A DNA stretch of 57,136 nucleotides, counting the filler, from Stramenopiles sp. TOSAG23-6 (Eukaryota), in NCBI GenBank assembly GCA_900128565.1. It is 2 parts of 2 records of this genome, joined end to end, with 100 filler letters (N's around TTAATTAATTAA, not from the genome) between each part and the next. Parts side by side here need not be neighbours in the genome. Positions count along the whole stretch, not along the records: positions 28,783 to 57,136 come from LT635977.1; 1 more part is not named here. One strand, written 5' to 3'. The position numbers were made by a program, and so were the translations under genes. Below the pieces are notes generated by a model. That model was not told the origin of the DNA. It ran no database searches and saw only the letters and a list, made by a program, of their open reading frames with translations. Positions 11,599 to 57,136 of the stretch are shown piece by piece. How positions within the stretch are numbered: position 1 is the first letter of the stretch; the number at the start of each line of letters is the position of its first letter.

Positions 11599-13420
11599 AT
11601 GTCAAGTTCTAATAGAGAAATTGAAGGGCAGCTTGCTGCGTTAGAGATAGGCGTTGACGCCGCAAATGGGAACACGTTTGGCCCGTCCAAAGAAACTTTA
11701 GACCGTTTAAAACAGAATGATAGGGGTGGCGACGAGTTTAAAGGTGGACGGGCGGATATTCATAAATTTTCTCATCCCGTTATAGCTCAGAGAATGAGTT
11801 CTGTTGAAAATGAACAGAAGCGAGGAATGGAAGAGTTTGTAAAGTGGCTCAAGGATAATGGGGCAATTTTTCCAAATCTGTACTTTAAATGTTACTCTGA
11901 AAGCGTAAGAGGAGTCCATGCTGCCAAAACTATTTCACCATATCAACAGGTTATGGCAATTCCATTGAAATGTATAATTACAGATGAAACTGGTAGGAGA
12001 ACTCCAATGGGGCAACGTTTAGAGGCTGTTCGGCATCAACTGACAGTTCCTAACCATTGTCAAGTTATTGTTTATATGATGACAACTCGTGAGCGTGGAG
12101 ATTCCTGGTTCCAGCCTTATTACGCCACCCTACCAAAAGATTTCAATAATTTCCCTATATTTTGGACGGACGAGGAACTCTCTTGGCTGGAGGGTTCCTC
12201 CCTCGTAGAACAAATTCGAGATCGGAAGAGAAATATCAGATCGGACTATGACACCATTTGCAAAGCACTACCTGAATTTAGCAGATTTACTTTTTCTGAT
12301 TTCTTGTGGTGTCGTACGGCAGTAGGAAGTCGTAACTTCAGTATCGTCGTGAATGGTGAAAAACGTACTGCAATGGTTCCTATGGCAGATATGCTCAACC
12401 ATGCACGTTTTATTTTTTTTCAATTTCGAATTTATTTTTAGTACGAAATTTTGTACCTAACGATTTTTTTTTGAAATATTTTTCCAAAATACAGTATCGT
12501 CCTAGAGAAACAAGTTGGACGTATGACAATTCGCAAGGAGCCTTTACTATGACGTCACTAAAGATATTGTCAGAGCACAATCAGGTGATGGATTCATACG
12601 GGAAGAAATGTAATTCAAAATTTCTCTTGCATTACGGTTTCACTATTGAATGTATGTTTTATTTTTTTTCAAATTCGAATTTTTTTTTTCGTACGGAATT
12701 TTTTACCTAACAAATTTTAATTTTTTTTTTGAAATATTTTTCCAAAATACATGTAACAGAGAAAGTGATGATAAATGTCAAAATGAATTAGATATCACTC
12801 TCTCCTTAGATGAGACTGATCCATTATTTGACAAGCGCAGTTATTATGTGAATAAATCTCGAGGCTATCGTGTTACTATGAATCATGTACGTTTTATTTT
12901 TTTTCAATTTCGAAATTATTTTTCGTACGAAATTTTATACCTAATAAATTTTAATTTTTTTTTGAAATATTTTTCCAAAATACATGAAGATCGAGGTACT
13001 CAGGATGCAATGGCATATTTACGTGTTGCTGTTGCTACTTCCGATGAACTTACATCATTTAGTCGCGGATTCCAGCATTCTGTTATATCAGCTCAAAATG
13101 AGTTAGCAGCACTTTTATTAATGGCTCAATTTTCAACGGAAGTATTGAGTGGGTACCCGAAGACAATGTCAGAAGATAATGCTGCACTTGCTGATGATGG
13201 ACTGGACCCCTTTTGTAATAAGCGCCACGCAATAATTGTGGTGAGAGGGGAGAAACAAATATGTCACTTTTATATTAAGCTTGCACAGGCTGCATCTCAG
13301 TTGCTGAAACTGCCCACAATGGAACGAAAACTTTTATTAAGTGAAAAATATACCGCAGACGATGATATTTCCAGGTTTTTGACTGCTACATGTCGTTCGC
13401 TTTTGTGTAAAGGATTATAA
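11599..13420 (+). CDS. SET-domain protein methyltransferase, SETD3/Rubisco-LSMT-like (509 aa); join(11599..12402,12495..12651,12753..12886,12986..13420)
   Basis: RGVHA, SWFQPYYATLP, PIFWTDEEL, MVPMADMLNH, DSYGKKCNSKFLLHYGF motifs plus a C-terminal substrate-binding helical domain. The three family introns restore a 1530-nt frame. Confidence 0.85.
12403..12494 (+). other. Intron (92 nt), family member, GC-AG
   Basis: AAC CAT|gcacgt...ccaaaatacag|TAT keeps the SET motif DMLNH. Confidence 0.85.
12652..12752 (+). other. Intron (101 nt), family member, GT-AT
   Basis: GAA T|gtatgt...ccaaaatacat|GT AAC. With this donor the next AGs give a frameshift (+7, +13) or a TAA stop (+9). Confidence 0.75.
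12887..12985 (+). other. Intron (99 nt), family member, GT-AT
   Basis: AAT CAT|gtacgt...ccaaaatacat|GAA GAT. Highly similar to the GC-AG intron 12403..12494. Confidence 0.75.
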
Positions 13421-18898: not shown

Positions 18899-21757
18899 TT
18901 AAACCATAATAAAGATAAAAAGAAAAATTAATTGTCTGATCGGACCTCTGACTTCATATGTACATAATAAAGATTCCCAAATAATGCCAAATAAAGCGAC
19001 AACCCAGAAACAAGCTAAGCTTCCGTTCATAGCATTTAATTTATGAGTGCATATCATGTTTTGTAAAACATATTTTTTTTTGGTTTAAAAAAAATCGTTA
19101 GGTACAAAATTTGGTATGAAAAAAAAATAAATTTGAAATGAATGATGAAAACATACATAAAACACTGAACTAAACCTGATATAGTCAATACTGTTCGTAT
19201 AAAAATTAAGTACGAACTTCTGTATTTCTTACGAGCTAATATTGCGCGTCTTGTCGCAAGAGCCCATTGAAACGTAAACATCAATGGAAGTATTAATAAA
19301 TACATTCTAAAAAATAATGTAACGACAGAAGCCCAAGAACCAAACAAATATTGTGAAAAATATTTTTTTTTAGTAAAAAAAAATGTTAGGTACAAAATTT
19401 TCTATGAAAAAAAAAAAGTACATTCGAAATTAATGATGGTAACGTACAACATTCTGAAGGGACCACCAGCACAATCGCCAACACCATTTCCTGCGCGAAG
19501 AGCTACATGTTCAAGAGTGCTAAATTGAACGCGCGAACTTGAACTCATCATATCCGAATATTCCTTAGGTATAAAGTTTTGTATGAGAGAATTTATGTAG
19601 CTAGTCACTTGAGAAAATCCGCCAAATATTTCCCCAAAACTACCTGGTAATAACTCATGTAAAATAATACGCATCGAAATACCTGAAGAAAAAGTACCAA
19701 TGAAGCCAATTTCATTGCCCAAGCCTCCTACCGAACAAAATGTAGCTCCCAGGAGTGCCAAATTAGCTAATTGTATGTATTGTAAAAAATATTTTACATT
19801 CAATTTCGTTGTTACGTACAAATTTTCATAGTAAAAAAAAAAAGATCAATTTTAAATTCAATTATGAAAAAGTACATCGAATCCTTAAACCCCCAATGCC
19901 ATTCTAATCGGAGGACATCATTAATACCAGCATTTTCTGCATGTATTTTGGAAAAATATTTGAAAAAAAAAATCGTTAGGTACAAAAGTTCGTACGAAAA
20001 AAAAATCGATTTTTTTGTTAAAAAAAAAAATAAAACAAACATGGCTATGGATCTCCTGACTTTGTATGCCTAGTACAGTGTGCGCAAGGCCACATAATAA
20101 AATAAGAAAATGTACAGTATCCGGAAATGCAAATTTTGCCACCCAATTTCGTAACACGTGGCCAATAAAAACAGATGAAAGAAAACCATGTATTTTGAAA
20201 AAATATTTCAAAAAAAAAAAAAAAATTGTTAGGTACAAAATTTCGTACGAAAAATAAATTCGATTTTTTTTGTGAAAAAAAAAAATAAAACATACATTCA
20301 CTGTGAAGCCAGTAAAAATGAGCATCAACAGTGGAATGATAGGCTTTGAAAGAGTCAAAAGTAAATCAAACTGACAATGCATAGATGCACAATATCGACC
20401 TTTTGTACCTTTCCGAACATCAGTCCTGTGTTTGTAAAAGAATATGTCAAATTCGAAATTTCTTACGTATGAAATTTTCTATAAAAAAAATAAATTTGAA
20501 ATTCATGAAAAAAACATACATGGAAGGTCTTCGTCCAATGACAGAGAATAAGGCACTCGTACCACTAATTGCAAATACGTCTAGCATTTCACGTTCTTCC
20601 TGAATGATAATTTGTGATTCAACATTAGCCTTAAATTGAGCTTCCATAACGTTCGTGAGGGCATCTAACCGTTTCACCTCCCGTTGATTGACTGTATCAC
20701 TAGCTTTTTTCACTGCATTTTTTCTTCGAATCCCACCGGCCATTTTTTCAACATGTTGATTTAATTCCCTCAGCCTTTTCTGATATTTTAAAGTTAGAGC
20801 ATTTGATTTACTATCATCATTGTGTGTCATCATTAAACTACCGAAAATATCCCGAGAACCAATTGAAGACATGTAACGCTGTTGCTGCACAAATACAATG
20901 AAACGGACAAATGGAGAAATAAAAAGCTGAAATATTGTGGGAAGAGGTCCGACCAAGATCTGTTGTACAGCTGAAAATATCTTTTTCAAAAATGATTCGT
21001 GTTCTCTTCCACCACGAAATATACCGCGGCACAAATTAAATAAATGCCACAGCAAGAGTAAAAGACCAATTGTTGGCATTAAGCCGTTTTCTAATGTCAC
21101 AATCCCGTAGGTAAAATCTTTCAAAAAATAAGCAACTTCTGAAAAAAAATACGTAGAACTTTCCATTGTTGAGAATGTTGCTGAGAATGACGAAAAATAA
21201 TCAAGGACTTCAGCTTCCAACCCAAAGAGATGTGCTACACTATAGCAAGATGCAGTCTTTTTTGGTCTACTGTGACGCAGCATCCCTAGGGCTTCCTCGC
21301 GAGCGGCGCTTATTTGAGTGAAGAATGCTTCACCCATGGATTGATGATCTTTACCTAAACGAACAAGGCGATCTGGGTGGGTGCAAAAGGATACATCACG
21401 GTATGCTTTCGCAACATCTCCGCGAGAAAATGGTGACTGTACACCCAATAGAGCACAAGGTGAGCTATATATAATGTAAACTTTGACTAATACATATAAA
21501 CCCATCAAAAATACTAACCACCAAGGCGCTATGATGGAATTGTATTTCCTCGTTCCAACTATAACAGGTAATTCATCCATTTTCTTGAAATCCTCAGGCA
21601 CTTTGGGACTTTCAGTTTGCTTAGTAGTTGCTGTTGTTGCTTTTGGTGGTGATGCCTCAGAAGCTTTGCTTGATTCATCAGAAGTCGAAGCCTTTTGCTC
21701 TTTATCTACAGCTTTTAAAGCAGCTCTTTTGCGAGCTTTTGCGCGACTACCTCCCAT
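18899..21757 (-). CDS. J-domain (HPD) multi-pass membrane protein (~750 aa); join(20520..21757,20296..20425,20041..20187,19876..19940,19448..19774,19157..19345,18899..19055)
   Basis: LLGV...DVAKAYRDVSFCTHPDRL J-domain. Six family introns give a continuous 2253-nt frame with many hydrophobic helices, ending ATG GTT TAA. Confidence 0.7.
19056..19156 (-). other. Intron (101 nt), family member, GT-AT
   Basis: TTT AT|gtatgt...acaaaacat|G ATA. An in-frame AG exists only 36 nt downstream. Confidence 0.65.
19346..19447 (-). other. Intron (102 nt), family member, probable GT-TT
   Basis: ATG TT|gtacgt...tttttcacaatattt|G TTT. An in-frame AG alternative lies 39 nt downstream. Confidence 0.5.
19775..19875 (-). 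other. Intron (101 nt), family member, GT-AT
   Basis: TCG AT|gtactt...tacaatacat|A CAA. Next AGs (+8, +29) are out of frame. Confidence 0.75.
19941..20040 (-). other. Intron (100 nt), family member, GT-AT
   Basis: AGC CAT|gtttgt...ccaaaatacat|GCA GAA. Next AGs (+4, +37) are out of frame. Confidence 0.75.
20188..20295 (-). other. Intron (108 nt), family member, GT-AT
   Basis: GTG AAT|gtatgt...tcaaaatacat|GGT. No AG inside the intron or for ~118 nt downstream. Confidence 0.75.
20426..20519 (-). other. Intron (94 nt), diverged family member, GT-AG
   Basis: TCC AT|gtatgt...acaaacacag|G ACT. Confidence 0.8.
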
Positions 21758-22646: not shown

Positions 22647-25600
22647 ATGGCTTCTGTGCTAGCCAAAGTTGATCTTACTTCAATGACTGCCTTACGACGC
22701 GAATTACAGAAACGAAACATTAGCACAACCACACCAAACTTAAAAGGGGAAGAGAGAAGAAAAGAGCTGGTGTATCGCTTAAAAGAAGTGCTTAATATCA
22801 TTGAATCAGAAAGTGATAGTAGTACAGAAGACTCAAGGAATCTATCAGAGCAAATAAGTAAACCGATAGACTGGAATAGTATGTTATCGATTCGTAAACA
22901 TCTTCTTGCTCGTAATCTTAGTGTATCAACACCAGGCGCGACTAATGAGGAACGTAGAGAGGTCTTAAAATGTCGACTCAAGGCATTTTTATCAAAGAAA
23001 AATGAGAAACGCAGAGATGTCGTAAAAGGTCGACTCGAGGCGTTTTTATCAAAGAAAAAAGATTCTTTGCCAAATAAAAATGTGCAGTTGTCACTACAAA
23101 CTGGTTTATGGAACAAACCAAAACAGGTTCCAGCAAAGAAAGCGGCTAGTTCGGCTCGGTCTGAAACTCGATTAAATGCCGACAGAGATGCTACTATAGT
23201 CAAGAATAACTCTACACTTACATCAGTAGATCAGTCATTAGGGTTAGGGTTAGGGCATGATTTTGTACCAAGTAGTGAACTTTTATCTTTACAAAAAAAA
23301 TTACAAAAGCAAAAAGATGAAATCGCGACAATAGAAAAGCGACGAAGAGATATTGTCTTCAAGAGACTTAGTGGTGCTGAAGGCACTGAACTCTTTGAAT
23401 TCATGAATGCATGTACGTTTTATATGAATTTCTAATTTATTTTTTTTCATACGAAATTTCGTACCTAACAAATTTTAGTTTTTTTTTTTTTGAAATATTT
23501 TTTCACAATACATTTCGATCGGTTAAACACGAATTGGATAGAGTTTGTAAGTGGAAAAAACGCTTTATTGATTCCAGTGCGCTCTGCATTGCAGCATATG
23601 CTCTTGGAACTGAATCAAAGAATAATGAAGAAACCGGTACAACAACCCGATTCCATGTCGATGTATGTTTTACTTTTTTTAAAATTCGAAAACTTTTTTC
23701 GTACGAAAATTTGTACCTAACGATATTTTTTTTGAAATTATTTTTCCAAAATACATGTATTACGTGTCCGTCTTGAGGAAGCTATTGTAAAGATGAAGAA
23801 ATCGTTATCTGATAAGCGAATGTCGGTTATGGCAGAGGAACGTCATAATCCACTCACTGGGGTTATTGTACAACGAGAAAAACAAGAAACAATTTCACAT
23901 CTTCAGGAAAAAGTTGAGTCTCTTTATGACTATGAATTAGATACACATATACACCACAAGAAGGAGAAACGCCAAGATAGAGAAATGAAACAAAATTCGG
24001 ATCGAAAGTCCAAATTACGAGTGTCAACTGAGTCAAATAAAAATAGACATGGAGGGAAACATAGTCGTAAAAGCCTTCGAAAAGGTGGTGCAGCCGCTGT
24101 TGCAAGACGTGCTGCAACTGGTCTTTCAGATTACTCTGCCCAGAAGGCAATGAGAGCAGCACGTGTTCGACTTGCTGCTAAATTTAACGATCAACTTTCA
24201 CGATCAGGTTCGGCAAACCCAGTGGGGAGAAATAGATTATCCGTAGTTCCTGGAGGATCACCAGTAGTACAACTTCGAGGAAATGATATTATTGCTCCAC
24301 CTCCCTCTGGCGATTCCTTTACAGAGACAAATAATAGTAAATTCGGAAATAGATATGCGAAGTTACCCCATTCTCGTCGTTTTGATTTTGATAATAGTGA
24401 TAGCATACCTCCTAGAATATCAGGAATTTCTGCGTCTCGCAATGAGGAGTCCATCGTATATCAAAATCCGGATAAATGTTGGCGTCAAGCATTTGTAAAG
24501 TANATAGCGAAACAAGATATAAAGGGCGCATCAACACTTTTCATGAAAGGAATTGCATTACATCCATATCACCCAGAATTGCTTCATCAATATGCTAACT
24601 TTATTCGCACAACTACAAGAAATTCAGAACTTGCGTCGAATCTCTATCTGCGAGCTCTTGAGGCATTCAGCAAAGGTCGAAATACTAATTTAAATGATGC
24701 AGAACGGTATAGTGCAGGGATTACTATGTTTGATCACGGAATGCACATGCAGGCATGTGGACAAACTGAAGCTGCTTTAAATTCTTTTAAAAAAGCTGTC
24801 GTAGCTTGTCCGAATCATCCTAGATTACTAGCAAAGCTGGCTGTTACNTTACACCGAATTCTCCCAAGCGAAAAACAAAATGATCGCCCGCCTTCACGTG
24901 CAAAGAATCATACAGATATAGTGACAAATTCGCGGACACCTATAAAAGAGAAGTTGCGTGTTCAAGACTTATACGAGCGGGCTTTTGTTGCTGATAGATT
25001 TAATGTGAAAAATTTAGTGAACTATGCACTCTTTTCTCAACGGTTATTAAAAAATAATAACCTTGCCGAAAAGTTGTTTCTTCAGGCATCCATATTAGAC
25101 CCATTTAATGGTGGTATTCTTTCAAACTTTGCTGCTTTCCTCGTGAAGGAAAAAAATGATTATGACCGAGCAGAAGCCTATTATAGAAGGGGTATTGAGA
25201 ATGATCCAAAACATGCTGGATGTATAGGCAATTATGCATCATTTCTCTGGAGAGTGCGAAATGATACTAAAAGTTCACACGCTTACTTTGAAAAGGCAAT
25301 GCAACTATCTCCGAATCATGCAAATAATCTGGGTAAATTCGCATCATTGCTCAAAAGTTGCAAAAAGTTTAAAGAAGCAGAAACTTTATACGAAAGAGCT
25401 ATTGCTGCTGATCCAGCAAATGCAACAATCCTCGGCAACTTTGCTAATTTTGTAAAGAAAATTCGTGGAGATAATAAATATGCAAAGAATTTATATTTAA
25501 AAGCTTTACAAATCGAACCGAATCACCGAATGAACCGTCGCAATTACGGACTACTTTTACGCGATTGTCCTGAACTTCGCGATGGGCCTAGTCGAGTCGT

Positions 25601-28682: not shown

Positions 28683-28782
28683 NNNNNNNNNNNNNNNNNN
28701 NNNNNNNNNNNNNNNNNNNNNNNNNNTTAATTAATTAANNNNNNNNNNNNNNNNNNNNNNNNNNNNNNNNNNNNNNNNNNNN
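28683..28782. other. Artificial contig spacer N44-TTAATTAATTAA-N44
   Basis: Exactly 100 nt, symmetric N runs around a six-frame stop linker. Confidence 0.97.
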
Positions 28783-30326: not shown

Positions 30327-33251
30327 TCATTGCACTTGCCCTGTAAATGCAATAGCCGTAGCAATAGAGTGTATAGGTGTATAACAAATACAAATTAAAG
30401 GATAAATCCAATTTCCATAATTATTCCAATCATTTTTAAATGTTTCAAGATTCAATATTTCATGATGTACGCCAATACTATGACTTATTTTTGGAATAAA
30501 TACAAAAAATATCGAAACCGGTGATAAGAAGACTAAAAACAGTAACTGTATTGTAGAAAAATATTTCAAAAAAAATCTAAAAAAAAATTGTTAGGTACAA
30601 AATTTACTATAAAAAAAAAATTTAGACAAAAAATTGAAAAAATAAAATAAAATATACCTGAAGAACATCTTTCATTGTGATTGAATTTGTTGAGAGCAGT
30701 GGCTGAACTATTGTTAAAAATGGGACAGTGATTAATCCAGAAAGTACTATATTTTGGAAAAATATTTCAAAAAAAAATTAACATTAGGTACAAAATTATC
30801 TACGAAAAAAAATTAAAAAAAAAAGAAATTAAAATGAAAACTTGGGTTAGGGTTAGGGTTAACCTACAAGCAAGTGAAAAATTGCCAAGGCCAAGGACAA
30901 GATGTATTGAAAGCCAAATAATGAGTGTTATAATTTTAACAGCCTGCCAACGACCAGTACGTCCCTTTGCGTACATTAAATTATAACCGACATACATGAA
31001 AATTAAACCTTCCGTACATAGCATATATTTTGGAAAAATATTTCAAAAAAAAAATCTAAAAAATTTTGTTAGGTACAAAATTTACTATAAAAAATAAATT
31101 CGATTTTTTTTTTACGGAAAACAAAAAAAATAAATAAAACTTACATAATAATCAATATATTTTCTACAAAATTTCTACCTACTAAAACATTATGAAAAAA
31201 CAATGCAATCTTATTCAAAACCTCTACAAAAAAATCTCCGATACCATTTGTTTTGAAAACATCTAAAAAATAAAGTTTGTTTTTGTATTGTTCTAACGAT
31301 TGTGTAGATACAATAAACAATATTCCCCCCATCGCAAAAGGTAGCAAGGATGGCCATATATTTAAAAAAAAAATTGAAATGTGAAAATTTGTTAGGTACA
31401 AAATTTCGTACAAAAAAAAAAAAAAATGTAAAAGTAAGGGTAGGGTTAGGGTTAACCTACATAGAGCACCGACAAAATCGAGTCTGTCCACGGAATAAAT
31501 CAAACCTAAGATTTTTATAATTACAGGAATACATATCAAAAGCAAAACAAAACTATATTCACCAATAGTGACCATTAGTGTCGGAGAGGGTAATATATAA
31601 AACCATGTATTTTTTCAAAATATTTCAAAAAAAAATTTCAAATTTTTTGTTAGGTACAAAATTTCGTACGAAACGTTTTTTGGAAAAAAAATTTTAAAAA
31701 AATGTAAAATAATGAAAACCTACAAAATGATTGATGAAATCTTTCCTCTAAATTATTACTACAGTGTTACACAATATGTCAAATTTGATATTTGTTAAAA
31801 ACAAAAACTTGGTATGATTTTGATGTGTACCAAGAAATATATATATACTATTCAATAGGGTTAGGTTTGTTTTTTTAAGGTAGGGTTAGGGTTCGTATTT
31901 AGGTAGGGTTAGGGTTACGTACATACTTCGTAAAAGTTTTTCCACAAGAACACCAAATGATTTTGATCTTGCACCACCATATGTCTTTCTACCAATTGTA
32001 ACAGGTGTAATTGTCAACGCTTCAATATTATATTTACTAAAATGAGCATGAGGCCCTAATGGACCACGAGCAAGGCTTCCACTAAAACGCAAAACTCCTG
32101 CCATTTTCTGAAGATAATCATTAAAATAATGTCGAAATTTTTTTGGAATGCAAAGAAGAAATTGTTTAAAATATGGCATGGCTATTACTGTAAATTTCGC
32201 AAAGGAATCAATATGTGCTGTTCTTGTCAACATGATTGGAACATCTGAAACTTTTTCAACAACATTAAACAAGTCCAAATTAGGTAATTGACCGTTTATA
32301 CCAGGAAGAAGTGCTGCTATATTTTGGAAAAATATTTCAAAAAAAATTCTAAAAAATTTGTTAGGTACGAAATTTCGTACGAAAAAAAAAAAACANAANT
32401 TCGATGTTTTTTTACTTACCTATATGTGTAAAACGTCCAAAATCGACTGAAGCTTGAACAACAATTGCACCGCGAATCGTTCCAACACGCAGAAATGATT
32501 GTGATAGTTTAGGTTGTGGTAATGTGTATGCTTCAAGCCATGCTTCAATACCATATGACAAAGGTAATCCTTGTTGATTGTTTTGTTTTTGTTTTTTGTT
32601 TTGATTAGGGTTTTCCAGAGGATTGTTAAGATCAATATCTAATGGAATCAGAAGAACACAATCTTTAGCAAGCCAATTTAGTTTCGTTAACATTTCAAAA
32701 AGAGCTAAAGATGTTGCTAGTCCAGAGGTATAATTCGTATCCCTTGTAGTTGAGTGTAGTCTATTCTTACTTACATCTTCATTAGCACCAGTGACGGCTA
32801 GTACCATGCCTTCAGCTCCAGAGGCTCTCGATGCCCTTAGAACTCCATATACATTATATCGCTCGACACCATCAACCTCATAACGGTGAATATTTGCCTC
32901 TATACCCATATCTCTAAGGGTTGACAATAACCAATCACGACGTTGGTGAGACTTTGCACCAATTTTCGAAGGTGGCATTTCCCAAAATGCAGCGTCGAAT
33001 TCTTTTGCACGCGATATCTCAGCATTGCTAAAAGAAACTAGCGATGAGCCAGGCATTAAGGCATTCTCAGATAGATACGTACCCCTGCATTTCGTTTCAC
33101 CACATGTTATACATGCGAGAGGGAATAAAGAAATCCATACAATACCAAGGATAAAGAAAAGTATTGAGAAAGCACTACGCCACTTCCACACATTAGACGC
33201 TATTGAAACTTTATAATCAGGTGGCACTAATTTAGTGATGATGCTTCCCAT
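30327..33251 (-). CDS. GAA1: GPI transamidase subunit GAA1 (692 aa, 8 exons); mirror of 52668..55592
   Basis: TYLSENALMPG, NVYGVLRA.R, WLAKD, GINGQLPNLDLFN, RSINNLEERFHQSFWFYIL, NFSLA. Introns 32317..32419, 31759..31922, 31605..31723, 31356..31460, 31023..31144, 30747..30867, 30546..30657. Confidence 0.88.
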
Positions 33252-37654: not shown

Positions 37655-38021
37655 ACTATTAACGAATCCTCACTAAGCGCATTCTCATTTGATTTCGCGA
37701 AATGATGTGGTTTGCTTATTCCACATTCGCTTGAGTGACACTCAATCAAGTTAAAACATGGTAGCAAATTGTGTGAATATGGTTTACCTTTTAAATTGTA
37801 TTTGATATAGTTTGATTGAATATAAATAAAAAGAATATTGAAAGATGAGTTTTTTTTCATACGAAATTTTGTACCTAACCAAAAAACAAATTTAATAGTG
37901 TCAGACAATTTCGTATGGATGTTTGTATTTTTTTCAAATACAATTGTACTATACTCTTAGTTTTTTAATAATCTAACTTTTTTATGATTCAGGATGTATT
38001 TATAATATTATATATCAAAAA

Positions 38022-47072: not shown

Positions 47073-47309
47073 TGTCAAAATAGACAAATTAAAGAGTGGA
47101 TTTATTTATCTTGGCATACAATCAAGAAAATTTTAGCGTACGTACTACGTGTAAAGTTGACTAATGTTACATTGTTAACAGAAATTTAAATTGGTGCCAC
47201 GTGGCAATTCTAACCAACTTGTCAAACTTTGTCAAAATAATATCATCATTCTCGCGGCGATGTAACAAAAGTTTACTAATCTTAAGAAACGCATTGGAAA
47301 GGAGTTGAA

Positions 47310-47897
47310 ATGTCAACAGCTCCCTCTAAAACTAGCATCGGTGACATTTACTTACGCGATTGGGTTGATGTGTATTATCCTCGGCATGTGACTCAATTTA
47401 CTTCTCTACAAGATGTTTTTGATAGACTGTCAGCTTTTCATGTTGTTCCGCTTCCAAATTCAAAGCAACGTTCTGCAGCTTTACGAAAAAGAAAACGAGA
47501 GAATAACGAAAGAATGGAGGAAATTAAAAAAAAATGTACCGTGATGACAAAAGAGGTGAATGACCTTATAAATAAAGTGCGTTCTCCTGATATTCCAGTG
47601 GAACAGAAACTATTATTAGAGGAATTAGTGCTTAGAAGTGACCTCATGGCTACACCTGCTCAGAGGCGCCGTTGGTTAAAATTTATTCGAACTGCCTCTG
47701 ATCGCCAACGGAGGGCAGAGGAAAAAGAAAAGCGTTCCATAATTCGCGAACAGAAAGCCCGTGAAGCTGCTGCAAAGAGGAAAGCAAAAGAAAAAGAACT
47801 TTTGAGTAAATTAGGAATTTCAAAAACACAGTCACCTAGAAAAATAGTTCAGCCAATACGCCAAAGTAGTAGAAAACGGAAACCGAATTTGAGGTAA
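47310..47897 (+). CDS. Mirror copy of the hypothetical coiled-coil protein
   Basis: Exact reverse complement of 38022..38609. Confidence 0.58.
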   Translation: MSTAPSKTSIGDIYLRDWVDVYYPRHVTQFTSLQDVFDRLSAFHVVPLPNSKQRSAALRKRKRENNERMEEIKKKCTVMTKEVNDLINKVRSPDIPVEQKLLLEELVLRSDLMATPAQRRRWLKFIRTASDRQRRAEEKEKRSIIREQKAREAAAKRKAKEKELLSKLGISKTQSPRKIVQPIRQSSRKRKPNLR

Positions 47898-48264
47898 TTT
47901 TTGATATATAATATTATAAATACATCCTGAATCATAAAAAAGTTAGATTATTAAAAAACTAAGAGTATAGTACAATTGTATTTGAAAAAAATACAAACAT
48001 CCATACGAAATTGTCTGACACTATTAAATTTGTTTTTTGGTTAGGTACAAAATTTCGTATGAAAAAAAACTCATCTTTCAATATTCTTTTTATTTATATT
48101 CAATCAAACTATATCAAATACAATTTAAAAGGTAAACCATATTCACACAATTTGCTACCATGTTTTAACTTGATTGAGTGTCACTCAAGCGAATGTGGAA
48201 TAAGCAAACCACATCATTTCGCGAAATCAAATGAGAATGCGCTTAGTGAGGATTCGTTAATAGT

Positions 48265-49227
48265 TCATTCAGCATCACCATCAACCTCCATATTCGCCTT
48301 TGCAAGGGCCATCATAGTTTCATGCAACTCAGCGTCCTGTTCATTATTTGTCGCATGTGGTGCAACTTTAACATTAATACTTCCACCCTTTTCAGTAATC
48401 ACTTCTTTGACCTTTTCAATCGATTTATTCAAGGTTTCAATACCAGCATTTTTATCAAGCGTGTTCAATTGCATAACATACAATGGGGGAGCAACTAATT
48501 TGATTGACATGCTTTCAGTCTTTGAAATTGTCTTTCCCGCAGAAAGTGCAGCTTTGATTGCGTCAATACCTTCTACTGTAAAACATGTAAGTTCAATATC
48601 TGCACGGACTTTAATCGCTTTTGCAGCAAGTTTGCGGTTGACGTCCTTCATAAGAGCTCTCATGATGTTTTCTGGAATATCCAAACCTCTGAAGACGTTT
48701 TCTGGATCTGTAACCGCAACTTTAAGAGCATCGAATGCATGACCGTACTTTTTAGACAATGGCCATGCAATATTCTTATAGAGGTCTTCGATGTACACTT
48801 TGCACTTTCTAGCAACGTTCAACAAAACACTATGTACTGTCTTAGACTTGTTGTAGCGGGCAGTGAATTTAGCGACATCCTCTGCAGGGACACGGCGTTT
48901 AGACAAATCCACATATCCCTTTTCCTTGTCAACACGAAGTACCAATACCACCTCTTGTCTGTTTACACGAATGAGTTTGTTGATTGATCGAATACGTCTG
49001 CGTGAAAGCTCTGAAAGAAGAACCATACCTTCAATATTGTTGTACTCCATTAACGAGACGTAAGCTCCCAATGCCTCGACTTTTTTAACGTTTACCATTA
49101 CCAACGTTTCAACTTCTGGAAAACGCTGTTTATAGTAACGACACTTACTCATGTGTTCTTCCTCAGTAGCATTGCGAAATACACCAGTTGGCTCATCGTG
49201 ATCATTATCAGTACTTTCGGCCGCCAT
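48265..49227 (-). CDS. EIF2S1: Mirror copy of eIF2 alpha
   Basis: Exact reverse complement of 36692..37654. Confidence 0.93.
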   Translation of the reverse strand: MAAESTDNDHDEPTGVFRNATEEEHMSKCRYYKQRFPEVETLVMVNVKKVEALGAYVSLMEYNNIEGMVLLSELSRRRIRSINKLIRVNRQEVVLVLRVDKEKGYVDLSKRRVPAEDVAKFTARYNKSKTVHSVLLNVARKCKVYIEDLYKNIAWPLSKKYGHAFDALKVAVTDPENVFRGLDIPENIMRALMKDVNRKLAAKAIKVRADIELTCFTVEGIDAIKAALSAGKTISKTESMSIKLVAPPLYVMQLNTLDKNAGIETLNKSIEKVKEVITEKGGSINVKVAPHATNNEQDAELHETMMALAKANMEVDGDAE

Positions 49228-49670
49228 TCTGATTATACAAACGATATATCTGTATATATGTTGATTGTGTACGTAGTCAAAGTTTATGTTCAGTTCCATA
49301 TTTTCGTATAAGAATTTGATACCTAAATTTCTACGCGTGTGCATCTCAATCGTGTGAATTTTCATGGTGATAACTAGTACCGGGTATCTTTAGTGAAAAA
49401 AAGAAAAAAAAAGTCACGAAAAAACAAGAAAAATAATTTTTGATTTGTTTTTTGTTTTTGTTTTGTGTTTGTTTGTGTTGATGTCAACACTCAAGTTCGA
49501 GTTAATGACAGCAGCAGTAAAAATCATTAAATTCTCAACTCTTGCTCAACGAACATAAACTATTGTGAACCCAGTATTAACATTCCCGATTTGAACATTC
49601 AAGTAGTCTATATCGGTATCTATTAGTAATTGCAAGACGAGAGAAAGAACAAAACACATTTTAGTTACGT

Positions 49671-50356
49671 ATGGCTCATCTTCTTGTCATCACAAGGCAT
49701 TGTTTCGTTGTGTGTATTGTAATTTTATTAACCATTCCAACGGTAACCATTTCTGCAATTCGTGGACACTCAAGTTCAAAACCTTCAAAACTGGCAATTA
49801 GAACAAATGCAACAAATCCAACAAATCCAACAAATCCAACATTCAGAACTTTGGAGAAGCTGAAATCAGACGAAACAGTCAATGAAAAACTTGCACCACA
49901 TCTACTGGATATCAAGCTCCTTTGGGCAGCGCGACACGGTTATATTCGCACAGTAAATCTTTTGTTGCAGGCTGGAGCTTCTTGCAATGCAAAAGATCAT
50001 AACAATCAGTCTGCTTTGCTATGGGCTGCAAATAATGGCCACTCTGAAATAGTAAGATTGTTAATCTCAGCTGGTGCTCTTGATGATGTACGTTTTCACT
50101 TTTTGAATTTATTTTTTCGTTCGTACTAAATTTTTTGCCTAACGATTTTTTTTTTTTTTTTGGAAAAAAAACAATAAATGTTGCAGTGATTGAAGATTAT
50201 CTCGATAGATTACACCAGTCAAACAAATCAAAATTATCTCCGTCACAGTATAATGACAATAAAGCCACATATAACCCTAACCCTAGTAGTCCTAATGATG
50301 AAAATTGGCCAATTCTTTGTAATCTGTGGTTTTGGCCGGTTCCTTGTACATGGTGA
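49671..50356 (+). CDS. Mirror copy of the ankyrin-repeat protein; intron 50088..50179 (probable GT-AT)
   Basis: Exact reverse complement of 35563..36248. Confidence 0.68.
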
Positions 50357-50832
50357 AAACAAGGGGGTGAAAACTTTAACCCTGCCTGAAAAAAAAATTG
50401 TTTAGTACGGAATTTTCTTTCGTACCGTAACGAATTTAGAATTTACTACTATATAGATATTGCTACTATAAAAAACTACGTATTTTTAAAAAAGTTAAAA
50501 AACGTGTTGTTTGCTTTTGCATCTTTCAAACTATCTGGTTCAATATTGTTTTTTCGATAGAACTTTTTAATAATTCCTAATGATAACATTCGACCACAAC
50601 TTTCTCATAAAGTAATCATCATCATCCAAGAATATGAAATAATAATTTTGTATTGAGAGACAGGAACCGTCAATTATTTTTACGAAAAAACACGAAAAAA
50701 CAAGAAAAATGTAAAATTTATACCGATCAGCTGACCAAGGAGCTTGACTTCAGGAACTCAGAATTTACCTCGTGGTATCAATTCTACCATTTGTATATTG
50801 AAAACAAAATACATTTGCAACTATTTTTCAAA

Positions 50833-52176
50833 ATGAATTATCTCTGTATTGTGCTGCTATTATTGATGATAATAAGTATAAGAGAAAGTAAAGGAGCTAC
50901 AACAGCAGAAATTACACTAGGCCTAAGAGGAGGTCCTACTTCGCAATTATCTCGCAGCGATTTAGGTAGTTTCTCTGCTGTTTCACGTGCGATGAACAAG
51001 GCAAGTGAAGTTGAATTTGGCATACGCGCACTTCGTACATCTAAAATGGTGAAAGAACTGATGCAATTATCGAGTGGAAATGTAGATATTAATTCCGTCA
51101 ATCAACATAAAGATGAGTCATCAATTCAATGGCTACGCCGTCTAGAAGGTATTCGTAAGGAATTGGAAAGAAATGCTTTAACTGTATTGTATGATACTAC
51201 AGGTGGAATCAATTGGAGTCGTAATAAAAATTGGAAGACAGATCAAGATATTTGTACATGGGATGGAGTAACGTGTAATGAAAGAGGGTGGGTTACTAAA
51301 TTGCACTTGTGGAGCAACAACCTATCTGGTTCAATACCAACGGAAATTGGTCTACTAAGAAATCTTGAAATGTTAATCTTGAATCACAACGAACTAACTG
51401 GTTCAATCCCAACGGAAATTGGTCAACTAATAAAGCTCCAAGATTTGATCTTGGACGAAAACCAACTAACTGGTTCAATACCAACAGAAATTGGTCAACT
51501 ATCAAGTCTCACTCAATTGTCCTTGCCATTCAACAAACTATCTGGCTCAATCCCAGCAGAAATTGGTCTACTAAGAAATCTCAAAGTTTTGGACTTGCGT
51601 ATCAACCAACTATCTGGTCCAATACCTTCGGAAATTGGTCAACTAACAAAGCTCAAAGAATTGATTTTGCGGAAAAACCAAATATCTGGTGCAATTCCAA
51701 AAGAAATTGGTCAACTAACGAAGCTAAGAGATTTGTCCTTGTCTCACAACAAACTATCTGATCCGATTCCAACGGAAATTGGTCAACTAAAAAGTCTTGT
51801 AAATTTTTACTTGTTCAACACCAGACTATCTGGTACAATTCCAAAAGAAATTGGTCAACTAACAAGTCTCGTTAGATTGTACTTGAACGACAACCAACTA
51901 TCTGGTGCAGTACCAACTGAAATTGGTCTACTAACAAATCTTGAACGTTTGATCTTGGGAGACAACAGCCTATCTGGTTCTATACCAAAAGAAATTGGGC
52001 AACTAACAAAACTTGAAAATTTGAATTTGGGTTTCAACAAACTATCTGGCTCCATTCCAAAAGAAATTGGTCAACTAACAAGTCTTGTTAGATTGGATTT
52101 GCAGAGAAACAACCTATCTGGTCGAATACCAGAGGAAATTGGTCAACTAACAAATTTTTTTGGTTTTTTACATTGA
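50833..52176 (+). CDS. Mirror copy of the secreted LRR protein
   Basis: Exact reverse complement of 33743..35086. Confidence 0.85.
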   Translation: MNYLCIVLLLLMIISIRESKGATTAEITLGLRGGPTSQLSRSDLGSFSAVSRAMNKASEVEFGIRALRTSKMVKELMQLSSGNVDINSVNQHKDESSIQWLRRLEGIRKELERNALTVLYDTTGGINWSRNKNWKTDQDICTWDGVTCNERGWVTKLHLWSNNLSGSIPTEIGLLRNLEMLILNHNELTGSIPTEIGQLIKLQDLILDENQLTGSIPTEIGQLSSLTQLSLPFNKLSGSIPAEIGLLRNLKVLDLRINQLSGPIPSEIGQLTKLKELILRKNQISGAIPKEIGQLTKLRDLSLSHNKLSDPIPTEIGQLKSLVNFYLFNTRLSGTIPKEIGQLTSLVRLYLNDNQLSGAVPTEIGLLTNLERLILGDNSLSGSIPKEIGQLTKLENLNLGFNKLSGSIPKEIGQLTSLVRLDLQRNNLSGRIPEEIGQLTNFFGFLH

Positions 52177-52667
52177 TTTGAAATTAGAAAAACAATTGGG
52201 TAAATATATCTAGTTGGTTCAGTATTGTTTTTTCGATAACTTTTCATGTTATATATGTTATTTTTTTGATAAATAATAAATGTACAAAATGTATATAAAA
52301 TGGTATTATCAAAATATTTTGAAACAAAATTAGAGAACTTTTTAATAATTCCTAATGATAACATTCGACCACAACTTTCTCATAAAGTATATATCATCAT
52401 CATTCAAGAATATGAAATAATAATTTTGTATTGAGAGACAGGAACAGTTAATTATTTTTAGGAAAAAACACGAAAAAACATTTAAAATTTATACCCTTGA
52501 GTCAAAACTACAAATGCACTACAAATTATAAATACCTTGACAAACTCAAGTGTCGTTCGAGTTATAGGACTGTGTGCGCTTACAACATTAATAACTGAAA
52601 AGTTTTATTATTAAACCTTTCAAGAATACATCTAATACATTTACTTTGATAACGTGGAACACGGAGT

Positions 52668-55592
52668 ATGGGAAGCATCATCACTAAATTAGTGCCACCT
52701 GATTATAAAGTTTCAATAGCGTCTAATGTGTGGAAGTGGCGTAGTGCTTTCTCAATACTTTTCTTTATCCTTGGTATTGTATGGATTTCTTTATTCCCTC
52801 TCGCATGTATAACATGTGGTGAAACGAAATGCAGGGGTACGTATCTATCTGAGAATGCCTTAATGCCTGGCTCATCGCTAGTTTCTTTTAGCAATGCTGA
52901 GATATCGCGTGCAAAAGAATTCGACGCTGCATTTTGGGAAATGCCACCTTCGAAAATTGGTGCAAAGTCTCACCAACGTCGTGATTGGTTATTGTCAACC
53001 CTTAGAGATATGGGTATAGAGGCAAATATTCACCGTTATGAGGTTGATGGTGTCGAGCGATATAATGTATATGGAGTTCTAAGGGCATCGAGAGCCTCTG
53101 GAGCTGAAGGCATGGTACTAGCCGTCACTGGTGCTAATGAAGATGTAAGTAAGAATAGACTACACTCAACTACAAGGGATACGAATTATACCTCTGGACT
53201 AGCAACATCTTTAGCTCTTTTTGAAATGTTAACGAAACTAAATTGGCTTGCTAAAGATTGTGTTCTTCTGATTCCATTAGATATTGATCTTAACAATCCT
53301 CTGGAAAACCCTAATCAAAACAAAAAACAAAAACAAAACAATCAACAAGGATTACCTTTGTCATATGGTATTGAAGCATGGCTTGAAGCATACACATTAC
53401 CACAACCTAAACTATCACAATCATTTCTGCGTGTTGGAACGATTCGCGGTGCAATTGTTGTTCAAGCTTCAGTCGATTTTGGACGTTTTACACATATAGG
53501 TAAGTAAAAAAACATCGAANTTNTGTTTTTTTTTTTTCGTACGAAATTTCGTACCTAACAAATTTTTTAGAATTTTTTTTGAAATATTTTTCCAAAATAT
53601 AGCAGCACTTCTTCCTGGTATAAACGGTCAATTACCTAATTTGGACTTGTTTAATGTTGTTGAAAAAGTTTCAGATGTTCCAATCATGTTGACAAGAACA
53701 GCACATATTGATTCCTTTGCGAAATTTACAGTAATAGCCATGCCATATTTTAAACAATTTCTTCTTTGCATTCCAAAAAAATTTCGACATTATTTTAATG
53801 ATTATCTTCAGAAAATGGCAGGAGTTTTGCGTTTTAGTGGAAGCCTTGCTCGTGGTCCATTAGGGCCTCATGCTCATTTTAGTAAATATAATATTGAAGC
53901 GTTGACAATTACACCTGTTACAATTGGTAGAAAGACATATGGTGGTGCAAGATCAAAATCATTTGGTGTTCTTGTGGAAAAACTTTTACGAAGTATGTAC
54001 GTAACCCTAACCCTACCTAAATACGAACCCTAACCCTACCTTAAAAAAACAAACCTAACCCTATTGAATAGTATATATATATTTCTTGGTACACATCAAA
54101 ATCATACCAAGTTTTTGTTTTTAACAAATATCAAATTTGACATATTGTGTAACACTGTAGTAATAATTTAGAGGAAAGATTTCATCAATCATTTTGTAGG
54201 TTTTCATTATTTTACATTTTTTTAAAATTTTTTTTCCAAAAAACGTTTCGTACGAAATTTTGTACCTAACAAAAAATTTGAAATTTTTTTTTGAAATATT
54301 TTGAAAAAATACATGGTTTTATATATTACCCTCTCCGACACTAATGGTCACTATTGGTGAATATAGTTTTGTTTTGCTTTTGATATGTATTCCTGTAATT
54401 ATAAAAATCTTAGGTTTGATTTATTCCGTGGACAGACTCGATTTTGTCGGTGCTCTATGTAGGTTAACCCTAACCCTACCCTTACTTTTACATTTTTTTT
54501 TTTTTTTGTACGAAATTTTGTACCTAACAAATTTTCACATTTCAATTTTTTTTTTAAATATATGGCCATCCTTGCTACCTTTTGCGATGGGGGGAATATT
54601 GTTTATTGTATCTACACAATCGTTAGAACAATACAAAAACAAACTTTATTTTTTAGATGTTTTCAAAACAAATGGTATCGGAGATTTTTTTGTAGAGGTT
54701 TTGAATAAGATTGCATTGTTTTTTCATAATGTTTTAGTAGGTAGAAATTTTGTAGAAAATATATTGATTATTATGTAAGTTTTATTTATTTTTTTTGTTT
54801 TCCGTAAAAAAAAAATCGAATTTATTTTTTATAGTAAATTTTGTACCTAACAAAATTTTTTAGATTTTTTTTTTGAAATATTTTTCCAAAATATATGCTA
54901 TGTACGGAAGGTTTAATTTTCATGTATGTCGGTTATAATTTAATGTACGCAAAGGGACGTACTGGTCGTTGGCAGGCTGTTAAAATTATAACACTCATTA
55001 TTTGGCTTTCAATACATCTTGTCCTTGGCCTTGGCAATTTTTCACTTGCTTGTAGGTTAACCCTAACCCTAACCCAAGTTTTCATTTTAATTTCTTTTTT
55101 TTTTAATTTTTTTTCGTAGATAATTTTGTACCTAATGTTAATTTTTTTTTGAAATATTTTTCCAAAATATAGTACTTTCTGGATTAATCACTGTCCCATT
55201 TTTAACAATAGTTCAGCCACTGCTCTCAACAAATTCAATCACAATGAAAGATGTTCTTCAGGTATATTTTATTTTATTTTTTCAATTTTTTGTCTAAATT
55301 TTTTTTTTATAGTAAATTTTGTACCTAACAATTTTTTTTTAGATTTTTTTTGAAATATTTTTCTACAATACAGTTACTGTTTTTAGTCTTCTTATCACCG
55401 GTTTCGATATTTTTTGTATTTATTCCAAAAATAAGTCATAGTATTGGCGTACATCATGAAATATTGAATCTTGAAACATTTAAAAATGATTGGAATAATT
55501 ATGGAAATTGGATTTATCCTTTAATTTGTATTTGTTATACACCTATACACTCTATTGCTACGGCTATTGCATTTACAGGGCAAGTGCAATGA
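52668..55592 (+). CDS. GAA1: GAA1 (mirror copy); join(52668..53499,53603..53996,54161..54195,54315..54458,54564..54774,54897..55051,55173..55261,55374..55592)
   Basis: 2079-nt spliced frame. Introns end AG, AG, AT, AT, AT, AG, AG. Confidence 0.88.
54196..54314 (+). other. GAA1 intron 3 (119 nt), GT-AT
   Basis: CAA TCA TTT T|gtaggt...gaaaaaatacat|GG TTT TAT ATA TTA restores the conserved HQSF.FY.L motif. Confidence 0.85.
54459..54563 (+). other. GAA1 intron 4 (105 nt), GT-AT, contains CCCTAA repeats
   Basis: CTA T|gtaggttaaccctaaccc...aaatatat|GG CCA. Confidence 0.7.
54775..54896 (+). other. GAA1 intron 5 (122 nt), GT-AT
   Basis: ATT AT|gtaagt...ccaaaatatat|G CTA. Confidence 0.72.
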
Positions 55593-55878
55593 CGTATACG
55601 AATAGAGTATTGTAGGTAATAGCTATGAATTTTCATACCATTTTTTTTATACTTTTTTTTTTTAATTTTGTTGTAAAAATAAAATATGATTTTTTTCTTG
55701 TGCAATTTAAATTGAATATTTCAAAATAATATGATTTTTTAATTCTAGAATCGCAGTATTTCGTGTTTCAATTTTTTCAGTCAGCAAAAAAAAACACAGA
55801 AGAAGAAGAATGACTCATCATCATCGCTACCTACAAAGAATACAATATTAGATAAAGTAGAATTACTAAAGTAATATC

Positions 55879-56951
55879 ATGGTAGAGCATTGGACTGGAT
55901 ATCATGATTTATATATAGACATTAAGCGCAGATTGTATGAAGGTCGCTTCACTGATGGTGAGAATGCTGATATTTCTCATCCTAAACCTAACGTAGCAAC
56001 TTTATTGTCTACAAAGTTATTAGATGAGCCAGAGTTAGAAAGGCAGTGTTTAGATGTTTCGACTTTAAAAAACTACTTACAATCCTTTAGTGACGGAGAT
56101 GCATCGAAATCTCAGTTGTGTGGCAAGGTGTTTCAACATGGAGATATTGTATATTTTTGCAAAACATGTGCCGCTGATCCAACTTGTGTTTTATGCGCAA
56201 AATGTTTTTTAGCTGGAGATCACGTAGATCACGAATTCCATTATTACCGTAGTCAAGGACAAGGAGGTTGTTGTGATTGTGGTGATCCTGAGGCAATTAA
56301 CCCTAAAGGATTTTGTTGTCTTCATGGTGGTGTAGATATTATAACAAATACTAATAAAGAAAGCGATGAAAACACTAATTTGAGTGAAAATTGGTCATAC
56401 ACTGATGAGGATTTGACAGAGACGTTCCAGAGTCTTCCACCAACTCTACAACAATCAGCCCCTGCAGTTATTGCTGGTGCTGTAGACTTTCTCCGAGAAA
56501 CGGCAGAACACTGTGTTAGCTGTTATGATGACCAAGCTTTACTTCAATCTGTTGCTCGTCAAGAATTTAACGAAAAGCAGAATGAAATTGAATGGGACAA
56601 GAATTTCACTGAACACAATGTAGAATATTTTTTCCCCGATTTATTACAGTGTTCAGTAAAGAAACTCAAGGTAATCATTAAAGAAAATGGTGGAGATGTT
56701 TCTGATTGTATTACAAAAAATGATCTAAGAGCGCGTGTCGCAGAATCTTTTTTTTCATCGTCAAAATCAGATTTGAAATGTAAATGTAGCCCTAACCCTA
56801 GTTCCCTATTGGAAAAGTGGGTTATTTTCATGCATAATGATGATGTTCATACTTTTGATGAAGTACATACAGCTCTAAGTAAAGTTGGTGTTGATGATGA
56901 AATGTGTAAATCTATCGCTCTTGATATTGATAAAAAAGGTAGTGGACAAAT
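55879..56951 (+). CDS. UBR1: Mirror copy of the UBR1-like first exon
   Basis: Exact reverse complement of 28968..30040. Followed by a truncated family intron with a duplicated CATACGAAATTTCATACCTAA motif. Confidence 0.83.
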
Positions 56952-57136
56952 GTTAGTTTTCAATTCATTTCAATTCAATTCCGAGATTTTTTTTTTTTTT
57001 TTTTTTTTCATACGAAATTTCATACCTAAAAAAAATTATTTTTTTTTTTTTTTTTTTTTTCATACGAAATTTCATACCTAACAAAAATTATTTTTTTTTT
57101 TTTTTTCGTCTTTACCCTAACCCTAACCTAAAACAT

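Follow-up and report, generated by a model that had tools for sequence, protein, structure and literature searches.

The window, by which we mean the whole stretch of 57,136 nucleotides analysed here (Stramenopiles sp. TOSAG23-6, GCA_900128565.1), consists of two unrelated contigs (C26 and C27) separated by an N run at 28683-28782 with a 12-base T/A spacer. The right-hand contig (28783-57136) matches its own reverse complement at 100% identity, the centre of the palindrome lying at about 42960 within the poly-A/T tract of a member of the intron family described below; contigs C2 and C4 also look palindromic, and are likely amplification or assembly artefacts. The organism is probably a MAST-3, an uncultured marine stramenopile, a placement that we draw from the nearest named eIF2-alpha homolog, which is 95% identical and bears what we interpret as a MAST-3-type label. 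Near the right end of the window is an essential gene, that for the GPI transamidase subunit GAA1/GPAA1, with the following features.

52668-55592, + strand: GAA1/GPAA1 gene, 8 exons and 7 introns, assigned by Pfam PF04114 and a homolog profile
53500-53602, + strand: intron 1, family body, GT-AG; the exon ends AG and the intron ends AG
53997-54160, + strand: intron 2, GT-AG, lacking the family hairpin and containing telomere-like CCCTAA repeats
54161-54195, + strand: micro-exon of 35 nt encoding the conserved NNLEE..HQSF motif, with ctgtag before and gtaggt after
54196-54314, + strand: intron 3, GT-AT, 119 nt, TTT/gtaggttt ... aaaatacat/GG; member of the ~100-nt repeat family by motif scores
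54193-54203, + strand: 5' splice site of intron 3, the site of predicted U1 pairing
54250-54270, + strand: family hairpin GTACGAAATTTTGTAC of intron 3 followed by CTAAC, by motif
54291-54314, + strand: family 3' motif of intron 3, ending CAT, by motif scores
54315-54458, + strand: exon after intron 3, beginning W-F-Y-I-L-P-S-P-T-L-M-V-T-I-G-E-Y
54459-54563, + strand: intron 4, family, GT-AT, by motif scores
54775-54896, + strand: intron 5, family, GT-AT, with a skipped AG 33 nt short of the intron end
55052-55172, + strand: intron 6, family, GT-AG, with the same gtaggt donor as intron 3
55262-55373, + strand: intron 7, family, GT-AG, by motif scores
31605-31723, - strand: mirror of intron 3 inside the palindromic contig, an assembly or amplification artefact

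Three of the seven introns thus end in AT and four in AG. The eight-exon model gives 697 codons free of stops (about 692 amino acids counted from the first Met), scores 379 bits and spans positions 4-628 of the 638 in the homolog profile, which agrees with the view taken in an earlier note on this DNA that the gene is unlikely to be a pseudogene. Against Pfam Gaa1, to which an alignment was proposed there as a check, the upstream exons match PF04114 at positions 3-115 and 114-225 of 497; the block NLEE.LHQSF..Y.L....FVS.GEY is present.

The gene adjoins an intronless protein at 50638-52176 with many plant-type leucine-rich repeats, and further to the left, at 37840-37945, there is a decayed and apparently noncoding copy of the family between the eIF2-alpha gene and a gene with a GLTSCR1 domain. 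Telomere-like CCCTAA/TTAGGG repeats are seen at 54005-54062, 54468, 55061 and 43024, and also at 23239, 56790 and 57115. They occur directly after several donors (GAA1 introns 2, 4 and 6) as well as in apparently coding sequence, and the hexamer is present in 5 of 199 family introns; the repeats are perhaps traces of telomerase-aided break repair.

The junction required by the GAA1 protein

All donors at 54181-54230 were combined with all acceptors at 54270-54399, giving 1,556 in-frame pairs and 900 distinct proteins, which were scored against a profile of the 23 of 33 fetched homologs that have the HQS motif. The junction 54195/54315 ranks first of the 900 products with 79.0 bits, and this bears out the proposal that the micro-exon joins W-F-Y-I-L only through gtaggt...aaaatacat. 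The only AG within 54196-54314 is that of the donor itself (gtAG), and the next one downstream ends at 54366, which is indeed 52 nt past the intron end. Its use would not simply delete FYIL..IG.Y as had been supposed, but would shift the frame from the same donor, and the sole in-frame GT-AG pair needs the donor at 54200, loses 16 residues, and yields a product of rank 480 of 900 with 38.4 bits. The part that the AG acceptor would cut away includes, counting from the invariant His, Y(+6) and F(+14), each present in 23 of 23 rows, as well as G(+18) in 19 and E(+19) in 20 of the 23.

Ordinary AG splicing from 54200 to 54366, a pseudogene, or a G-to-T base-calling error are readings to which we give practically no weight. 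One in-frame GT-AG product does exist, and artefacts such as palindromes are present in the assembly, but that product forfeits the invariant Tyr and Phe, GAA1 is otherwise intact, and an AT end recurs 3,087 times in the assembly, on an independent contig, and at a joint found in RNA (see below). At the level of sequence and alignment the intron at 54196-54314 is confirmed as real, starting with GT and ending with CAT at a junction that the protein alignment requires, with no usable AG at its 3' end. Its gtaggt donor is shared with the intron at 55052, as the note had it, and that intron ends TAG at 55172.

The suggestion that this intron is the best single test case was overstated. Cuts at TG..CA and TA..TG would give the same mRNA as GT..AT, so that cDNA from GAA1 tests the junction and not the register, and the supposed second copy at 31461-31758 adds nothing, because the contig 28783-57136 is a perfect inverted repeat and its mirror site is not independent evidence. 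The pattern of the GAA1 micro-exon had 0 matches in metagenome contigs.

A family of repeated introns of about 100 nt

The hairpin-plus-CTAAC motif has 9,598 matches in the 21-Mb assembly, a count inflated by duplicated contigs, compared to 5 for a reversed control. The strict 3' motif of the family followed by either AT or AG occurs 3,198 times in the whole assembly, with AT in 3,087 and AG in 111 of these. For closer study we used a non-random sample of 938 kb, mostly the largest contigs, with loci from targeted searches added. From 315 unique motifs in it, 221 introns could be parsed; the matrix for the 3' end is blind to the last two bases, and the donor matrix was seeded on GTAYGTTTT. An open reading frame of 60 nt or more flanks the predicted ends on either side in 199 of the 221, whereas shifting the 3' end by 1-2 nt leaves 64-89 open and the opposite strand gives 75.

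Among the 199 open-frame introns, whose median length is 100 nt, the last two bases are AT in 156, TT in 19, GT in 9, AG in 7 and others in 8. All parsed introns have GT or GC donors, which the parser requires and with which the frame and U1 tests agree. The donor consensus is CAU/GUAYGUUU, and on the exon side (-3 to -1) the A at 76% and the T at 87% are independent of how donors were picked; the GAA1 donors GTAGGT and GTAAGT deviate from the typical GTAYGT. The first downstream AG is in frame for 61 of 192 introns, which is the chance level, and 59 of the 192 skip an AG between the branch motif and the end, so that scanning for the first AG was rejected. A fixed ruler from branch to end was also rejected, as the distance from CTAAC to the end is spread over 33-49 nt.

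Individual genes provide further junctions. In PRMT5 a family intron is placed such that the exons abut at human residues 443/444; use of the next AG that is in frame, 3 nt further along, would delete Glu444, a catalytic residue. An independent metagenome contig (L119) carries the same intron form. The left contig of the window contributes the following.

12403-12494, + strand: GC-AG intron of the family, within a SET-type gene; ...NH/Y... results from the unshifted cut alone, and cuts 1-2 nt leftward replace the His of the NH motif by Gln
12652-12752 and 12887-12985, + strand: two more family introns of the SET-type gene, GT-AT
19775-20295, - strand: three GT-AT family introns in a membrane-protein gene
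23413-23756, + strand: two GT-AT family introns in a gene for a TPR protein

The four proteasome introns viewed lack the family body and are ordinary GT-AG introns. More broadly, conserved and probably highly expressed genes (proteasome and cathepsin; L074-L097 and L125) have mostly non-family introns, and the impression is that family introns are more frequent in large genes of probably low expression. We note also that a CCT-zeta-like gene (L078:1-350, G000:C3314) stops matching past a family intron, probably in a chimeric contig.

Joints in environmental RNA

In five seawater metatranscriptomes, 5-9% of the sequence words of 47200-57136 are present, and those shared derive, we presume, from the eIF2-alpha gene. 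The RNA comparison of joints was made with four seawater metatranscriptome runs against a 10-kb cathepsin locus. A GT..AT joint removing 94 nt is present there in runs X1 and X5, which come from two studies, with 91 nt on the short side and zero register ambiguity; a GT..AG joint removing 102 nt is present in runs X1, X2 and X5, and one RNA contig spans both. The GT..AT intron has none of the family motifs and skips an AG 23 nt before its end. Because this non-family intron also ends in AT, the acceptance of AT is a trait of the splicing system and not of the repeat alone.

For the one family intron of that locus, in a carboxypeptidase gene (L128), no spanning RNA contig and no joint were found in the runs compared. 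In run X3, a library of the total-RNA type, hundreds of contigs pile onto the family element (L128:8284-8380 and 1-60), which may be unspliced transcripts, excised introns, DNA, or unrelated sequence rich in AT.

U1 and the splicing machinery

The spliceosomal RNAs U1, U2, U4, U5 and U6 are all present together with Prp8, and the U2, U4, U5 and U6 RNAs have standard catalytic and pairing motifs. The U5, U2, U1 and U4 genes form a tight tandem cluster of about 640 bases (L118:9-645, G000:C1146). U6 (L033:953-1056) departs from consensus just upstream of the ACAGAGA box, with no clear added pairing with the family donor.

The sole U1 found by the Rfam search is present in two identical copies, at 54.1 bits (E 8e-12) against a gathering cut-off of 69.5. 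Its 5' end reads AAACGUACAUG instead of the canonical AUACUUACCUG, and the three changes face U at +7, C/U at +4, and the U that closes the exon in the family consensus CAU/GUAYGUUU. Over 198 family donors the variant U1 forms a mean of 9.09 Watson-Crick pairs of 11, compared to 6.96 for canonical U1, and it is better at 189, equal at 9 and worse at none; the match at +1 to +8 is partly built in, because donors were picked by a GTAYGTTTT-seeded matrix, and the exon-side AU is independent of this. At the donor of GAA1 intron 3 there are 8 Watson-Crick pairs and 1 wobble with the genome's own U1 and 6 and 2 with canonical U1, whereas canonical U1 fits better at GAA1 intron 1 (9 against 6 pairs) and at the cathepsin intron (6 against 5). 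No canonical U1 was found in the incomplete assembly, either as an Rfam match beyond the two variant copies or as a pattern match; because of that incompleteness, a second, canonical U1 may exist.

The register of this pairing bears on whether the same mRNA could arise through another cut, at TG..CA, TA..TG or AT..AC, made by a spliceosome working out of register or by a route other than the spliceosome that relies on paired intron ends. At GAA1 the TG..CA and TA..TG cuts give an identical product, just 8 of 199 family junctions are free of register ambiguity, and the two ends of family introns are nearly complementary. We nevertheless consider this very unlikely: the match to the variant U1 peaks only at register 0, falling to 1.7-3.8 pairs on sliding by 1-3 nt, and the cathepsin joint in RNA is GT..AT with zero ambiguity, so that AT-AC and TG-CA readings of the family were rejected. 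The AT..AC register at GAA1 would moreover give HQSL and a lower score (76.1 against 79.0 bits). The 5' and 3' ends of family introns show no covariation at six facing positions; end-to-end pairing is for this reason unsupported, and pairing of the intron's own ends was rejected as a 3'-site signal. Our preferred reading is a cut before a GT that is complementary to U1 in the standard register, as in U2-type introns.

Introns of the U12 type are flexible in their terminal dinucleotides. The non-AG ends seen here, together with a CCTAAC motif in the family that resembles the U12 branch motif, might recommend the minor spliceosome, but the donors are GTAYGT and not RTATCCTT, they match U1, and searches of this incomplete genome gave no match to U12 or U6atac. 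Removal by the minor spliceosome is on these grounds extremely improbable.

Among the proteins, Prp8 (L124:786-3701, G000:C84) is identical to the human protein in the alpha-finger region. It differs at 23 sites where 39 distinct homolog rows agree to 90% or more, the final few of these sites being less reliable as they lie near an N-containing end. These private substitutions cluster at about human residues 1246-1320 and 1438-1458, and we regard them as a lead only, offered by the alignment. Slu7 is present, and there is one weak zf-U1 match in the assembly. No U2AF35 was recognised in the 5 contigs read of the 11 that have the 16 CCCH matches, and a search of the assembly for Prp18, run with no positive control, did not find it.

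Origin of the family

The family consists of many similar introns at unrelated sites in the sense orientation (199 against 75 of 221), as expected of introners, and the last two nucleotides of the upstream exon are identical to those of the intron in 151 of 199. For exons that do not end in AT, the ends are identical in 23 of 61, compared to a mean of 2.6 and a maximum of 10 in 10,000 shuffles, and complementary in 1 of 61. This direct 2-nt repeat fits a target duplication. In 48 of the 199 the ends are unmatched, and the GAA1 GT-AT intron is among these imperfect cases (TT against AT), so that the duplication is seen across the family and not at this intron itself; the next exon starts with GT in 16 of the 48 unmatched cases and in 21 of the 151 matched. 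A candidate terminal inverted repeat in the family consensus, GTAT..ATAC, is only 4 bp and shows no covariation, and the family motif has 0 matches in viral contigs. The family is likely to be introner-like in origin, with 2-nt duplications.

Direct repeats at the element ends could also suggest removal from the DNA, in the manner of ciliate IES elements, and the acceptor U might alternatively be edited to G before splicing. RNA libraries can contain DNA, but the orientation is strictly sense, the donor is complementary to U1 and is accompanied by a branch-like motif, and in a single RNA contig a GT-AT intron and a GT-AG intron are both missing, all of which make DNA removal or editing a most improbable account.

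A different history is that splicing proceeds as we describe but that the family is no introner: a changed U1, together with selection or gene conversion, would have homogenised old and new introns towards a single optimal set of signals, and the matched ends would be a by-product. The GAA1 introns pair older-looking donors with the family 3' half, the non-family cathepsin intron likewise ends in AT, and 18 of the 26 introns that follow an exon end other than T have T as their final base. We think this unlikely, though less so than the readings above, since the TT/TT, GT/GT and AG/AG matches (the 23 of 61) are hard to obtain other than by physical duplication, a long body is shared by thousands of copies, and the four proteasome introns viewed have AG ends and no family body.

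Comparison with known systems

Several features recall the larvaceans Fritillaria borealis and F. pellucida, in which, according to the passages available from PMC13326754, most introns lack a 3' AG and end most often in AT (34% and 44%), a YAY triplet precedes the donor and recurs where the intron ends, the major spliceosome is used, and a MITE origin is proposed; Henriet 2019, as cited in the part of PMC11282704 consulted, also concerns these non-canonical introns. Mostly non-AG ends with AT commonest, YAY on both sides, the major spliceosome and a proposed MITE origin are shared with the stramenopile. The main Fritillaria classes described there start with AG (AG/AC and AG/AT), whereas the stramenopile donor stays GT, and AG-starting donors and a duplicated, divergent U2AF are not features of our data, U2AF35 being unseen among the CCCH contigs read. 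In F. borealis the same passages describe U2AF duplication and m6A changes and not a change in U1 sequence, whereas here U1 itself is rewritten and one family dominates.

In the sections of PMC11282704 and PMC12130899 available, the IE1 introners of Micromonas pusilla and their relatives are, as here, short repeated introns of coding sequence in which the element supplies GT or GC; their 3' site is also co-opted from the target duplication, which spans 3 nt there and yields AG, but spans 2 nt here, usually AT, TT or GT. The Amoebophrya introners, as far as described in the excerpts of PMC7789003 and PMC11282704, are similarly invasive repeated introns with direct repeats at their junctions, but have non-canonical ends and variable repeats of 3-5 nt, compared to the fixed GT donor complementary to U1 here.

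Atypical donors have co-evolved with U1 in Entamoeba (AACAAAC) and Mastigamoeba balamuthi (ACGUAC), according to the portion available of bioRxiv 10.1101/2022.06.08.495308. The ACGUAC core of the stramenopile U1 is that of Mastigamoeba, and the extra A pairing with the +7 U is as in Entamoeba. The changes described in that portion are intron-facing only, whereas in this genome the U1 base opposite the final exon nucleotide has changed too (from C to A, so as to read U), in company with non-AG 3' ends. Our literature search, which covered neither subscription papers nor supplements, found no report of this combination and, for MAST and other stramenopiles, none of GT-AT introns or of a variant U1, and the passages available from MAST single-cell work (PMC5778133 and bioRxiv 10.64898/2026.04.17.719054) contain no word starting 'splic'. 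The rewritten U1 is the piece that this case adds.

A model for GT-AT splicing and its implications

As judged from its sequence features, the intron at 54196-54314 behaves as an introner-derived intron of the major spliceosome that ends in CAT where the canonical AG would stand. That it is a U2-type intron, cut before GT and after AT, derived from an introner family and matched by U1, is in our judgement highly probable. With thousands of such introns and a U1 that has changed to suit them, the genome points to a spliceosome working by altered rules. In the model that we favour, the rewritten 5' end of U1 would pair with CAU/GUAYGUUU and fix the donor at GU, the sequences being observed and the pairing predicted from them. 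An ordinary U2 would branch at the CUAAC beside the hairpin of the family, at a distance of 33-49 nt from the end, the candidate branch A of the GAA1 intron being 54269, 46 nt before the next exon. The 3' end would then be picked with neither an AG nor first-AG scanning, two bases past the conserved ...AATAC, and the second step would tolerate or prefer U as the last base while usually keeping A at -2; the AT cut is seen in RNA for one intron, and the chemistry is conjectured. As suggested by the matched ends, a MITE-like introner would supply the GT donor, and the last two bases would come from the 2-nt target duplication, mostly AU presumably because U1 favours exons ending in AU.

We speculate further, though we would put the chances at somewhat below even, that the AG rule has moved to AU at both ends, with U1 reading exons that end in AU and the second-step site accepting or preferring U opposite the first G, and that the three-base change in U1, possibly with the Prp8 substitutions, opened the genome to thousands of introns. 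If AU is read at both ends, a small element inserted at AU/G with a 2-nt duplication would be born a perfect intron.

Yeast structures suggest direct reading of the 3' AG in the catalytic core. In this protist the donor is a normal GT, AT dominates among the acceptors and U1 matches, a combination that isolates the question of the 3' end; the U1 variant, the Prp8 substitutions as a set and a substrate of 100 nt are concrete objects for tests. Exceptions to the 3' AG on a genome scale are known from larvacean tunicates, in the available passages without a change in U1 sequence; the present case, if true, would be the first rewrite of a core snRNA coupled to loss of the 3' AG rule. It would be a protist case that ties a change in the spliceosome to mass intron gain, and gene finders that assume GT-AG will break many genes in this marine lineage.
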